From NCBI RefSeq assembly GCF_001457815.1, contig NZ_LN898221.1, positions 115,519 to 147,518 on the forward strand: DNA of 32,000 nucleotides, read 5' to 3'. Shown one piece after another: positions 27,170 to 32,000 of the stretch. The notes beneath the pieces are model-generated. The model was not told where the DNA came from. It saw only the letters and a program-made list of their open reading frames with translations, and did not search any database. The number at the start of each line of letters is the position of its first letter. The stretch's first letter is position 1. Both the position numbers and the translations under genes were made by a program. This stretch comes from Vitreoscilla massiliensis (lineage in GTDB: Bacteria; Pseudomonadota; Gammaproteobacteria; Burkholderiales; Neisseriaceae).

Positions 27170-27197
27170 ATTTAACATAATATATATTATGCGAACT
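27170..27197 (-). other. dif: XerC/XerD recombination site dif (or the dif-derived att site of prophage 2)
   Basis: The minus strand reads AGTTCGCATAA-TATATA-TTATGTTAAAT. This matches 25 of 28 positions of E. coli dif, GGTGCGCATAA-TGTATA-TTATGTTAAAT, and the XerD arm matches 11/11. Confidence 0.8.
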
Positions 27198-27220
27198 AAT
27201 GAGGTTCGTGAAATAATATG

Positions 27221-27550
27221 CTAATCTCCACTAAACCGACGTTTCTTGTAAAACCCAACTGGCACTCGTACATTGTAAGTCTTAATCACTGACTTAAAAT
27301 ACTCAGTCTTCAAAAACTCTTTTTCATCTTCACGCGCTTTGTAGAACTCACAAGAAACAAATATCTGCACTGGGTCTAGGTCTAAAGCCTTAGCTATCAT
27401 CAATTTACGCGCTACCGATAATTTACGCTTCCCAGTTTTAAGCTGTCGAATTTCAGCAGTCGTCGTATTCCAGTGAAACGATAATTTTCTGTCTGATGTG
27501 ATATTCAATTCCTGTTTGTACAGGTTCATCCATTGTTCTTGCGTTTGCAT
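27221..27550 (-). CDS. XRE-family HTH repressor candidate (RstR-like position)
   Basis: 109 aa starting from the ATG at 27550 (MQTQEQW), preceded by GGGGA. An alternative ATG is at 27571. The HTH-like segment is WNTTTAEIRQLKTGKRKLSVARKLMIAKAL. It is divergent from the phage operon. Confidence 0.5.
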   Translation of the reverse strand: MQTQEQWMNLYKQELNITSDRKLSFHWNTTTAEIRQLKTGKRKLSVARKLMIAKALDLDPVQIFVSCEFYKAREDEKEFLKTEYFKSVIKTYNVRVPVGFYKKRRFSGD

Positions 27551-27693
27551 GTCATCCCCAATTATTAGCATTAACTGCTTATTGTCACAGCATTTTTGGC
27601 ACTGTCAAGCCTGTATTTTTACAGAACTTATAAATATTATTTGCACAAGTTCACATTGTACTCTGTAAACGTCTAGCGAAAGGACGCCAAGCC
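27551..27693. promoter_or_regulatory. divergent promoter/operator region of prophage 2
   Basis: This AT-rich, 143-bp intergenic region lies between the repressor and the first operon gene. It contains TTGCAC-17 nt-TGTAAA and TATAAAT-like elements. No operator could be defined with confidence. Confidence 0.35.
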
Positions 27694-27885
27694 ATGCACA
27701 AGCCACTTCCTGCTCATGACAAGCACACTGCTTACATCGAAATATCGAAATCGGGTTTTAAGTTCATTTGCGTCTTAGTAGCTGAAAAACGCACGCCAGT
27801 ACGCATGTTCACCAGCTTGGTTAAATGCAAGCAATTCGCTGCTGACAATGGTTTGGATTTTCAACTGGTGGGAGCTTTGGCATGA
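27694..27885 (+). CDS. conserved small inovirus protein (homolog of 18101..18298)
   Basis: 63 aa. AAAGGA lies upstream. The N-terminal similarity is MHKPLPAHDKHTAYIEISKSGFKFICVLVAEKRTPVRMF versus MQRPLPEFDIETAYFEVSRTPSRKYIVTLVDGGKRSPVRQY. Confidence 0.5.
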   Translation: MHKPLPAHDKHTAYIEISKSGFKFICVLVAEKRTPVRMFTSLVKCKQFAADNGLDFQLVGALA

Positions 27886-28070
27886 AACAGCGTGAATTTC
27901 CTTGTATCACTCTTTGCTCAGTACAAGATTCTTATTTTTTATTCTTCCATCGTGAATTTGGTTTTTTCTTTGAAATTGAAGAATCTACAGATTACAAGCA
28001 AATCGCTCTTCGTGGCCTTCAATGTTCGCATGCTATTAGAGTGCCTTTTTACAATGAGGTGAAATCATGA
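27882..28070 (+). CDS. hypothetical phage protein
   Basis: 62 aa with ATGA overlaps at both ends. I recognised no motif. Confidence 0.35.
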   Translation: MKQREFPCITLCSVQDSYFLFFHREFGFFFEIEESTDYKQIALRGLQCSHAIRVPFYNEVKS

Positions 28071-28183
28071 TTCGTTACACAGTTTATTGCTTCTTGTGGT
28101 GGGTAAATTTTATAGCCTGTGTTTTCAATAGCATCTTCACTTTTGTAACAGATAAATTTACAAAAAATGAGGTGAAATTATGA
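28067..28183 (+). CDS. 38-aa hydrophobic peptide
   Basis: MIRYTVYCFLWWVNFIACVFNSIFTFVTDKFTKNEVKL. It has ATGA overlaps with both neighbours and is bracketed by a 21-bp direct repeat. Confidence 0.3.
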   Translation: MIRYTVYCFLWWVNFIACVFNSIFTFVTDKFTKNEVKL

Positions 28184-30014: not shown

Positions 30015-30317
30015 ATGTCAGATTATTGGGATATTGATGATTCAACAGGTGAAATTGACATTGATGGCAATGTTTATCGCAATGAATCGTTCAGAGAAAC
30101 ACAAGACGGTGAAATTGAAGAGTTAACAGACAAAGGCTGGGAATACTCAGCCATGAATGACTTTGCTCTTGAATTTGAACATGATGAGGATGGAAATATT
30201 GTGGGTTCTCATCAGGTTGATGCTGATGGTAATGAGCTTGAAAGCTTTGATTTGAATTTTGGTGATGAAGAAAGTTTTGATTTGGATTTTGGTGATGAAG
30301 GGGATTTGAATTGGTAG
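30015..30317 (+). CDS. extremely acidic small phage protein (YWDIDD motif) with internal tandem repeat
   Basis: 100 aa starting from the ATG at 30015, preceded by TGAGGT. It is homologous to 16225..16443. The C-terminus carries the duplicated ESFDL(N/D)FGDE. Confidence 0.6.
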   Translation: MSDYWDIDDSTGEIDIDGNVYRNESFRETQDGEIEELTDKGWEYSAMNDFALEFEHDEDGNIVGSHQVDADGNELESFDLNFGDEESFDLDFGDEGDLNW

Positions 30318-30369
30318 TTTTACGGGAAGCAAACACCCTATTTTGTTTGCAAATTTTGGAGAACGTCTT

Positions 30370-30600
30370 ATGAAAAACGTAACTAAAAAAGCTGGCATCT
30401 CAACTGCCGTTGCAACTGCTTTGACTGTTTCTGCGCCTGCTGCTATGGCTGCTGATGCTTTTACTTTGGATACCACTGCTGTTGTAGCCGCTGCTGCTGT
30501 TATTTTGGGTGCTGTTGGTGTGATTGGTTCTGCTTTTATGATGATTCCTGCAGCTATCAAAGGCTGGGGTGTTGTTAAAGCAATCATCTTCCGCAGTTAA
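30370..30600 (+). CDS. major coat protein (pVIII-like)
   Basis: 76 aa starting from the ATG at 30370, preceded by GGAGA. The signal peptide ends AMA-AD. The mature peptide has an acidic N-terminus, a hydrophobic core and a basic C-terminus (KGWGVVKAIIFRS). Confidence 0.8.
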   Translation: MKNVTKKAGISTAVATALTVSAPAAMAADAFTLDTTAVVAAAAVILGAVGVIGSAFMMIPAAIKGWGVVKAIIFRS

Positions 30601-30608
30601 GGTGTGAT

Positions 30609-30881
30609 ATGGGCTACTTTGTTGATGGTGTGTGTGTATCTACCAAGGAGCAGGCAGAAGCCATGCTGTATAGCAAGGTAGCCCCTGTAATCACAGAAAA
30701 CGGCGTTAAGCAGTTGGACTATATAAACGGGCAGTATGTTTTTGAAAGCCAAGTCTTAACGTCTGTTTTTCCTGAATGTTCACAGGCTGCAAACTTCATA
30801 CAAGGTGCACAATTCGGCCTGTATATCGGTTTGTTCTTTGCAGCAGCTTACGGTTTTATTGCAATGAAAAGGGCCATGTGA
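30609..30881 (+). CDS. conserved inovirus protein with C-terminal TM anchor (homolog of 15718..15993)
   Basis: 90 aa, homologous at the N-terminus and in overall architecture to the prophage 1 protein. Confidence 0.5.
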   Translation: MGYFVDGVCVSTKEQAEAMLYSKVAPVITENGVKQLDYINGQYVFESQVLTSVFPECSQAANFIQGAQFGLYIGLFFAAAYGFIAMKRAM

Positions 30882-30961
30882 TGACTTTCCAAGACCCTTA
30901 TTTCCTAGCTGGTTTTATATCTGTCCTTGGCTTCGCTTGGATATTTTTCTCAAGGCTCTGA
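30881..30961 (+). CDS. 26-aa hydrophobic peptide (pVII/pIX-like candidate)
   Basis: MTFQDPYFLAGFISVLGFAWIFFSRL. It has 1-nt TGATG-type overlaps with both neighbours. It occupies the same position as 15635..15709 in prophage 1. Confidence 0.35.
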   Translation: MTFQDPYFLAGFISVLGFAWIFFSRL

Positions 30962-32000
30962 TGATGAAATATTTGATAAGCATTCTTCTACTGTTTATTT
31001 CTTTTCAAGCAAATGCTGTCAATTACCTCGGCTTTGGCGGCGGCAATTATGTGTATGCTGAACAAGGTAATCTGTATTTCAACATTGACGAGTATGCATT
31101 TGATAACAGGGCTTGGACATATGATGGTCAAAAGTTCACAAGTCAAATTAGTATCAAAATGGATTTAAAAACAAAGTACACGTCAGATTGGTATGAACAA
31201 GTATTAGTAAACAAAAAATCAGATGGTTTTATGTATGCAAATTATATTAAGCATCCATTTCATTATCAAAATCGTGGTGACTATCAAAAAGTTTTTTGGC
31301 AAAGATATGCGGCTGCGGCAGTTGGTGGGCAAATCGTAAGAACTGCATCATTTGGAGCTTTTAAAGGATTTATAAAAAATAACTTTCCAAAATTTGCTGC
31401 TACTGTAATCGGTAGTTATTTTATTTCTCTTGGAGTTGCTGATAGTGTTAATTGTGAATCAGGTGATTGTAAGCAAACAGTTGAATATATGTATGTTTCA
31501 AAAGTAGTCAATCCCTCAACACAGCAAGTAGTGACAACTAATACGATTTACGCCACTCGTGATGAATATGTCAGTCACGAAAAACTCATTGCTGTTGTTC
31601 AGTCTAAATTAAAACCTGTTAACTCTAATGGTTCAACGCTTGAATATTGTAATGTTAATGTCAATGTGAATTGTTATTACAAACGTCCTTCACCTCAGAC
31701 CGGCTATGACGGTTATGCGTTTTCATGGTCTACTTTACCTTCAAAATTAACTGAAGAAAGACTGGTTCAAGATAGGGACTTGCTTAAATACTTTGATGAA
31801 GTCTGTGCAAAATTTCCAAGCGAATGCATTAACGAACCTAGTGATGGTAAAAAAATTAACGATGTTCAATTGACTGCAGGCAGTATTAGCGGTGGGGTTA
31901 GTGTTACCGGTCCACCTTACACAAATCCTATAACTGGTAAAGCAGAGCAAGATCAAGTGGTTATAGGTGGCACAAATTCTGGTATTGGTGTGCCATCTTC
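30961..32000 (+). CDS. pIII-like adsorption/minor coat protein, 3'-truncated by the window end
   Basis: This frame is open from the ATG at 30961 to the window end, so it is not in the ORF track. The product MMKYLISILLLFISFQANAVNYLGFGGGNYVYAEQGNLYFN... parallels 14074..15633. Confidence 0.7.
   Translation, partial: MMKYLISILLLFISFQANAVNYLGFGGGNYVYAEQGNLYFNIDEYAFDNRAWTYDGQKFTSQISIKMDLKTKYTSDWYEQVLVNKKSDGFMYANYIKHPFHYQNRGDYQKVFWQRYAAAAVGGQIVRTASFGAFKGFIKNNFPKFAATVIGSYFISLGVADSVNCESGDCKQTVEYMYVSKVVNPSTQQVVTTNTIYATRDEYVSHEKLIAVVQSKLKPVNSNGSTLEYCNVNVNVNCYYKRPSPQTGYDGYAFSWSTLPSKLTEERLVQDRDLLKYFDEVCAKFPSECINEPSDGKKINDVQLTAGSISGGVSVTGPPYTNPITGKAEQDQVVIGGTNSGIGVPS

Follow-up and report, generated by a model that had tools for sequence, protein, structure and literature searches.

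A recombinase-free filamentous prophage beside dif in Vitreoscilla massiliensis: probable integration by host XerC/XerD in the manner of VGJφ

How does a filamentous phage without a recombinase gene become part of a bacterial chromosome? This question is raised by a stretch of 32,000 nucleotides of the genome of Vitreoscilla massiliensis (Neisseriaceae; contig NZ_LN898221.1 of assembly GCF_001457815.1, positions 115,519 to 147,518), which we refer to as the window. It contains two inovirus prophages: prophage 1, which bears a transposase gene, and prophage 2, which begins directly beside a copy of dif, the target of the host recombinases XerC and XerD, and is cut by the right end of the window. 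A preliminary description of the window had proposed that the integration of prophage 2 was probably Xer-dependent, i.e., that the phage is one of the integrative mobile elements that exploit Xer (IMEX). The presence of a dif-like site at its distal end, the absence of a transposase there and the position of related phages at dif support this proposal and allow it to be refined. According to our sequence comparisons, prophage 2 is probably (at roughly 0.85) an Nf-like filamentous phage integrated at dif through host XerC/XerD, as an IMEX of the type of the phage VGJφ.

The two attachment sites of prophage 2

The sequence past 32 kb was supplied by another record of V. massiliensis, CP091511.1 (locus L003), which adds 4.6 kb and brings the sequence examined to 36.6 kb in all. 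The response regulator gene at 25936-26631 has an exact match in CP091511.1 and in the assembly of the run SRR20281129, and L003 is 99.96% identical to window positions 15936-32000, apart from four substituted bases within prophage 1 and an A-tract of rep that is changed by 2 nt. Beyond the window, the remainder of the TspB gene is followed by the genes for DUF2523, Zot and DUF2726 proteins, a non-coding stretch of 277 bp and a second dif-like site (the right site), after which chromosomal genes for DUF4440, Rieske and dioxygenase proteins begin. Scans with Pfam and PHROGs detected no integrase, transposase or recombinase domain in the open reading frames (ORFs) between 27.2 kb and the distal limit of the prophage, the part past 32 kb being taken from CP091511.1. 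The initial impression that the 4.8 kb visible in the window are free of integrases and transposases was thereby borne out for 27.2-32 kb. Past 32 kb, where an IS110 transposase had been thought possible, zot and a dif-like site were found and no such transposase at the distal end of CP091511.1, which favours the Xer reading.

The left site is an intact dif. Read on the plus strand, it consists of the XerD arm ATTTAACATAA (27170-27180), the centre TATATA (27181-27186) and the XerC arm TTATGCGAACT (27187-27197). This order of the arms confirms that prophage 2 adjoins the XerC arm, and the repressor gene indeed ends at 27221 beside the site, the measured gap to the XerC arm being 23 nt. The minus-strand reading of the site, AGTTCGCATAATATATATTATGTTAAAT, agrees in 27 of 28 bases with the dif of Neisseria meningitidis MC58 (AGTTCGCATAATGTATATTATGTTAAAT, sequence taken from PMC2731167), and the single difference lies in the centre. 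Within the window, 27170-27197 is the sole match to the 28-mer when up to three mismatches are allowed, and 100 shuffled sequences gave 0 matches. The exact 28-mer was also found once per locus in 72 fetched loci (L009-L080) from the genomes of other species, mostly Gammaproteobacteria (such as Halomonas relatives, SAR86 and Methylophaga).

The right site, ACGTTACATAA-CAAGATA-TTATGCGAACT, has the same orientation as dif and shares with it 11/11 bases of the XerC arm and 8/11 bases of the XerD arm, the inner bases of the latter being kept. A spacer of 7 nt gives the best fit (3 mismatches, vs 7 with a spacer of 6 nt), and the only part that the centre CAAGATA has in common with the TATATA of dif is ATA, beside the XerC arm. 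The right site is, dif itself apart, the only close match in the 36.6 kb examined. The distance from the left to the right site is 7,646 bp, which corresponds to a prophage of about 7.65 kb. Both sites stand on one strand and coincide exactly with the ends of phage similarity: the match between prophage 2 and an independent, related prophage in the metagenomic contig L005 spans 27175-34844, starting inside the left site and stopping one base beyond the right site.

What we observe, then, are the sequences of the sites, their direct orientation, their position at the similarity limits, the lack of a recombinase gene and, as described below, the same layout in relatives. By analogy with the published work on VGJφ, we infer from these observations that integration depends on Xer, and likewise in which order the strands are exchanged and how the junction is resolved. 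The phage VGJφ has a single dif-like attachment site (attP) of 29 bp, integrates in double-stranded form with XerC acting first, lacks homology to dif in the part of the centre beside the XerD arm and leaves two flanking sites that both remain usable (PMC4246890). If prophage 2 behaves similarly, its double-stranded replicative form would carry a single 29 bp attP, ACGTTACATAA-CAAGATA-TTATGCGAACT, between the cargo gene and hairpin region on one side and the repressor gene on the other, and the circular junction of this form is predicted to contain ...GGATAACGTTACATAACAAGATATTATGCGAACTAATGAGGTTCG... XerC and XerD would pair attP with dif, and XerC would exchange one pair of strands beside its own arm, where attP and dif have ATA and the entire XerC arm in common. 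As the rest of the 7 nt centre mismatches dif, XerD would be unable to finish the reaction, and the Holliday junction would be resolved by replication or repair. The left product would be an intact dif, in which the XerD arm and the centre are chromosomal and the XerC arm comes from the phage; the right product would be a hybrid of the phage XerD-like arm and centre with the chromosomal XerC arm. With an intact dif on the left, dimer resolution would be retained and further elements could integrate, while excision would leave an empty dif joined to ...AGATTAGATTGCC.

Could the divergent XerD arm of the right site point to the opposite order of events? In the route of TLCφ and the gonococcal genetic island (GGI), XerD is activated by FtsK or a phage factor and acts first, and XerC completes the reaction; the sites of both elements have a divergent XerD arm, as the distal site of prophage 2 does. 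However, the attP of TLCφ is 28 bp long and nearly identical to dif in its centre (PMC4246890), and the GGI, a type IV secretion island of 57 kb, uses a 28 bp site with a dif-homologous centre in an FtsK/XerD-first route (PMC5357621), whereas prophage 2 has a 29 bp site with a 7 nt centre that agrees with dif at ATA alone. The same 7 nt centre pattern is present in three related lineages, and among the submitted prophage ORFs there is no Pfam match suggesting an Xer-activating factor. We therefore regard an XerD-first entry of prophage 2 as very unlikely.

Host Xer proteins are used in yet another manner by CTXφ, whose attP is folded from two inverted sites of the single-stranded genome and whose integration is irreversible (PMC4246890). 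For prophage 2, this would mean that the single-stranded genome folds two inverted dif-like sites into a forked hairpin substrate. A 5 bp inverted repeat that overlaps the XerC arm and a weak inverted dif-like match with six mismatches at 27826-27798 would be in line with such folding. Against it, the opposite strand lacks a second XerC-arm match at up to one mismatch, shuffled sequences fold as well as the reconstructed attP junction (z about 0.2), the small inverted repeat is not conserved in L005, and the flanking sites are direct repeats, which are expected of a single double-stranded attP; a CTXφ-like entry has almost no probability in our estimate. The inverted match at 27826-27798 itself is at chance level, a comparable match with seven mismatches being present in chromosomal DNA at 4900. 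As for the repeat, which had been taken to recall folded attP structures, it is present, although GGTTCG lies at 27203-27208 instead of 27202-27207; it is near the level of chance, about 1.2% of 5-mers having such a partner, and the folds predicted for the related phages of L001 and L005 do not use it. The arrangement had been likened to CTXφ and VGJφ and to the GGI without distinction. The part of this comparison that stands is the VGJφ form, with its single 29 bp site; CTXφ drops out for want of an inverted site and the GGI because the centre is not homologous throughout.

Related phages, tandem arrays and the side of the crossover

Is this layout peculiar to one locus, or does it recur in related phages at other positions? 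Two close relatives, in the contigs L001 (84% nucleotide identity) and L005 (80%), provide a first answer. A three-way alignment of the left ends of these phages and prophage 2 showed that the flanks are unrelated and that similarity begins at the dif-like site; in both L001 and L005, the phage begins at ...ACATAA TATATA TTATGCGAAGT. The left neighbour in L001 is an MFS transporter gene. The left neighbours in L005 (1-2828) encode a type IV coupling protein and a DUF4400 protein and belong to a GGI-like conjugative element; the left site there has a divergent XerD arm with a standard centre, a pattern that fits the published description of GGI sites (PMC5357621). On the right side of the L005 phage, the 17 nt past the XerC arm repeat the left end of the phage itself, after which the sequences diverge (11185-11432), and the divergent stretch appears by eye to be the end of another repressor-like gene. 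This suggests that the L005 phage sits in a mixed array at dif. The right junction of L005 was also present in the contigs L006 and L007, which come from two other samples.

More distant relatives form arrays. Neisseria sp. S1 (Rep 43% identical) harbours two tandem copies in the order dif, phage, 29 bp site, phage, 29 bp site, and the metagenome contigs L094 and L095 (Rep 41%) contain two to three copies in tandem. The sites of Neisseria sp. S1 read ATTTAACATAA-TATAAA-TTATGCGAAGT on the left, ATTTAACCTAA-CCGTAAA-TTATGCGAAGT between the copies and ATTTAACCTAA-CCGTAAA-TTATGCGAATA at the end. L094 and L095 have TTTGGACAAAA-TAGTACA-TTATGTGAACT at their internal positions and a terminal site whose last part is TTATGCGAACT. 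The 7 nt spacing is common to the sites of L005, Neisseria sp. S1, L094 and L095. What remains constant with the phage throughout the arrays is the XerD-like arm together with the 7 nt centre, the XerC arm being the part that differs at the outer junction. Such a change of the XerC arm locates the crossover at the border of centre and XerC arm.

One additional piece of evidence for the side of the crossover is provided by the centres themselves. In three lineages (V. massiliensis, L005 and Neisseria sp. S1), the centre of the phage and that of the site across the prophage agree only beside the XerC arm: CAAGATA/TATATA, CAACATA/TATATA and CCGTAAA/TATAAA, respectively. Taken together, the centre pattern and the arm changes in the arrays are as an XerC-side crossover would predict.

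Evidence on whether the occupied site is the dif of the chromosome comes from a metagenomic contig with about 81-84% DNA identity to the window (L097). Between the aminotransferase and SDF transporter genes its gene order is unchanged, without prophage 1, and 1.7 kb past the SDF gene it carries the dif ATTTAACATAA-TATATA-TTATGCGAAGT, which is followed by a different element with ParA/ParB-like genes (14991-18289). Because this syntenic relative has dif at the same place with a different element, the position appears to be both chromosomal and a hotspot of integration. On this comparison, the site occupied by prophage 2 is probably the chromosomal dif, at what appears to be a stable chromosomal position taken by various elements.

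The same loci bear on the idea that the integration did not depend on Xer at all. The resemblance to dif would then be coincidental, the phage having entered by means of its nuclease-like DUF2726 protein or by homologous recombination, or else the "dif" would be a pseudo-dif borne by the phage. The DUF2726 protein is weakly similar to the endonuclease-like families DUF559 and REase_MTES_1575, and the sequence statistics given below did not place dif at the terminus. However, the L005 phage has no DUF2726 gene and yet shows the same site layout; the left XerD arm and centre lie outside the similarity between phages and are perfect dif sequence in V. massiliensis, in L001 and in Neisseria sp. 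S1; and in L097 dif stands in the same chromosomal neighbourhood with a ParA/ParB-type element in the place of the phage. An entry independent of Xer consequently seems to us highly improbable.

Several results must nevertheless be set against VGJφ-type integration of prophage 2. An excised circle of the phage was not detected. The predicted attP junction found no match in the viral contigs searched, and a conserved 19-mer of the hairpin region gave six metagenome matches, none of which was similar to the prophage, and 0 matches in a viral scan. A scan of genome contigs for the exact dif 28-mer returned no representative of Neisseriaceae, V. massiliensis itself included. GC skew and the counts of FtsK-orienting polar sequences (KOPS) were flat and uninformative for the position of the terminus over the 36.6 kb available, and the dif locus lies at 3.547 Mb of the 3.728 Mb record CP091511.1, whose start point is not established. 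The host xerC and xerD genes are not within the window. Finally, the two XerC arms in V. massiliensis are identical, and the crossover point is not directly readable there.

A further array was noticed in N. iguanae (PXYY01000071.1), where two different Rep_trans inoviruses without a recombinase gene stand head to tail. The dif scan of this array found no site between the phages at the thresholds used, for which the attachment sites may be too divergent.

Genes of prophage 2 and comparison with prophage 1

The features of the two prophages are listed in Table 1.

Table 1 Features of prophages 1 and 2 and of the attachment sites (positions in the window; "extended" continues this numbering into the sequence of L003)
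Feature	Coordinates	Strand	Basis and remarks
dif, left attachment site	27170-27197	+	intact 28 bp, ATTTAACATAATATATATTATGCGAACT
Short inverted repeat	27192-27208 (CGAAC 27192-27196, GTTCG 27204-27208)	.	beside and overlapping the XerC arm
Prophage repressor-like helix-turn-helix regulator, 116 aa	27221-27571	-	phrog_638 (E 4.8e-9), phrog_4441
Presumed divergent regulatory region, flanked by the repressor gene and the rightward operon	27572-27693	.	promoter-like sites; strong conservation in three phages
Three small ORFs (63, 62 and 38 aa), function not assigned	27694-28183	+	
Rolling-circle replication initiator, Rep_trans, 491 aa	28180-29655	+	PF02486 (E 5.8e-27), phrog_453 (E 1.7e-65)
96 aa ORF directly 3' of rep	29615-29905	+	position of a single-stranded DNA (ssDNA)-binding/RstB-like protein; no family match
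Acidic 100 aa ORF	30015-30317	+	N-terminal 52 aa share 54% identity with a prophage 1 ORF
Probable major coat protein, 76 aa	30370-30600	+	phrog_2374 (E 1.1e-7); signal-like N-terminus, hydrophobic core, basic C-terminus
90 aa ORF, probably a minor virion protein	30609-30881	+	29% identity to the prophage 1 counterpart
TspB-like adsorption protein, 515 aa in full, cut by the window end	30961-32000	+	PF05616
DUF2523 protein, 95 aa, and Zot, 411 aa	past the window, 3' of TspB		PF10734 and PF05707; from L003
DUF2726 cargo gene, 170 aa, after zot	L003 2609-2097 (extended 34025-34537)		
Non-coding stretch, 277 bp	L003 2096-1820 (extended 34538-34814)		two long hairpins (z -3.8)
Right attachment site	L003 1819-1791 (CP091511.1 3,554,633-3,554,661; extended 34815-34843)		ACGTTACATAA-CAAGATA-TTATGCGAACT, direct to dif
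Prophage 1, Nf-like inovirus	11283-18340 (right limit approximate)	-	IS110-family transposase, Zot, DUF2523, TspB, G2P-type Rep
IS110-family transposase of prophage 1	11283-12239	-	
G2P-type Rep of prophage 1	16799-17857	-	

The repressor gene is conserved in L001 and L005, and a version of its product with 109 aa is named XRE family regulator in UniRef. The product of the 63 aa ORF is 43% identical to that of a prophage 1 ORF. The gene at the position of the 96 aa ORF is annotated as RstB in related deposited inoviruses, and from this position the ORF would be a candidate for an ssDNA-binding or RstB-like protein.

An exact look-up of the Rep protein of the window matched no record, and searches of genome and viral collections with Rep peptide patterns gave no match. 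The A-tract in rep (29213-29222) varies in length among assemblies of essentially one genome. It is A10 in the window, with a Rep of 491 aa, A8 in CP091511.1, where a frameshift splits Rep into 361 + 131 aa, and A7 in the SRR20281129 assembly, with a Rep of 490 aa. The three lengths could be due to sequencing error or to real slippage that toggles rep on and off; in the latter case, the tract would possibly be an on/off switch for phage replication.

The slot after zot differs between phages. An unrelated gene of 184 aa occupies it in L005, DUF2726 is also present in one N. iguanae phage, and the slot looks like a variable cargo position from this comparison. The DUF2726 protein of prophage 2 has a hydrophobic N-terminus. 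Over about 130 nt, the 277 bp hairpin stretch next to the cargo gene is near-identical to its counterpart in L005, compared with an identity of about 80% in coding regions; it is probably a packaging signal or a replication origin.

How closely related are the two prophages that share this genome? They had been described as sibling inoviruses with a common morphogenesis module and apparently different integration systems, a combination said to be unusual. Prophage 1 does bear a transposase, of the IS110 family, and its TspB is 62% identical in protein sequence to that of prophage 2. However, the identity is only 37% for Zot and 29-54% for three small ORFs, and Rep differs in family: that of prophage 1 is a G2P protein, that of prophage 2 a Rep_trans protein. 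By these values, the two phages are relatives that share a style of morphogenesis module, and not close siblings. The coexistence of two integration routes in one genome appears to hold as well; the notion that it is unusual fares less well, since, judging from the parts of that literature available to us, related inoviruses were already known to exchange integration modules, and the coexistence would probably not surprise specialists.

Prophage 1 itself offered some further observations. Its locus is empty in L097 (8137-8216), where an AHSA1-like gene adjoins a Na/H antiporter gene, which bounds the prophage to about 7.4 kb (window 11046-18492). A brief look for repeats at its ends revealed nothing convincing. 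The only substitutions between the window and CP091511.1 are those in prophage 1, at 16253, 16262, 16270 and 17086, three of them within 18 nt; they could reflect recombination between phage copies or differences between the assemblies.

Known systems and biological meaning

Of the systems compared, VGJφ is the one whose integration prophage 2 resembles. Both are filamentous phages of similar size (about 7.5 kb in VGJφ) with a Rep_trans initiator, Zot and no recombinase gene, and both combine a 29 bp attP (11 + 7 + 11) and centre homology only by the XerC arm with two direct sites and a regenerated intact dif. They differ in that prophage 2 has a host among Neisseriaceae and an Nf-like structural module, with TspB and DUF2523. 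Its similarity to Vibrio phages is low: the Rep matches in the deposited phage collection were all below 60% identity, with the best at about 36%.

The gene content, on the other hand, links prophage 2 to Nf1-Nf4 and MDAφ, with which it has TspB, DUF2523, Zot, the Rep_trans initiator and the gene order in common. Nf1-Nf4 use the IS110 route, and Nf1 is reported to target dRS3 repeats at variable loci (PMC7058167). In these phages, an IS110-family transposase of the PivNM/Irg type follows zot, whereas the slot of prophage 2 holds the cargo gene and the 29 bp attP, and the phage stands at dif. The closest named genome relatives are found in Neisseria and Paralysiella, with a Rep identity of 40-43%; those in N. 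shayeganii and Paralysiella testudinis have an IS110 transposase after zot, and a dif-like site was not found in them. Among deposited phage genomes, the nearest are circular human saliva inoviruses (30-38% identity in Rep or Zot). All four that were inspected carry a transposase between zot and rep, where prophage 2 has the cargo gene, the hairpin region and attP.

Two other elements share some traits with prophage 2. The GGI is likewise an element of Neisseriaceae at dif, its flanking sites being dif and a degenerate dif whose XerD arm is divergent, but it is not a phage of 7.6 kb. CTXφ, integrated via host Xer, is likewise a Rep_trans inovirus at dif, and deposited genomes of Affertcholeramvirus, the genus of CTXφ, are among the distant Rep matches, but prophage 2 has neither the inverted second site nor the folded attP.

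Inoviruses integrated at dif are well known from Vibrio (PMC4246890) and from Haemophilus, and sources of which parts were available place them in Xanthomonas, Ralstonia and Enterobacterales as well. We found no literature report of filamentous phages at dif in Neisseriaceae, which is weak evidence because the coverage of the literature was incomplete. No new mechanism is revealed by these data, the strategy itself being already known. What they would add is the extension of Xer-exploiting filamentous phages to Neisseriaceae, in the form of a recombinase-free sister lineage that occupies dif and has a 29 bp site like that of VGJφ, represented by this locus and by relatives in Neisseria sp. S1 and several metagenomes, and a natural pair of related phages that reached one genome by two integration routes.

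A broader scenario can be sketched tentatively, and we hold it to be unlikely on present data: Nf-like inoviruses of Neisseriaceae may repeatedly have exchanged the IS110 transposase for a VGJ-type attP of 29 bp in the slot between zot and the regulatory module, with the dif lineage building mixed arrays together with GGI-like conjugative islands, as in L005. If this were true, mixed arrays could enable a filamentous phage to excise elements integrated at dif next to it and to package them, as is the case for VGJφ and CTXφ.

For the family as a whole, dif emerges as a hotspot at which phages and GGI-like islands are stacked, and the practical use of the sites described here is the correct placement of prophage borders in Neisseriaceae genomes.

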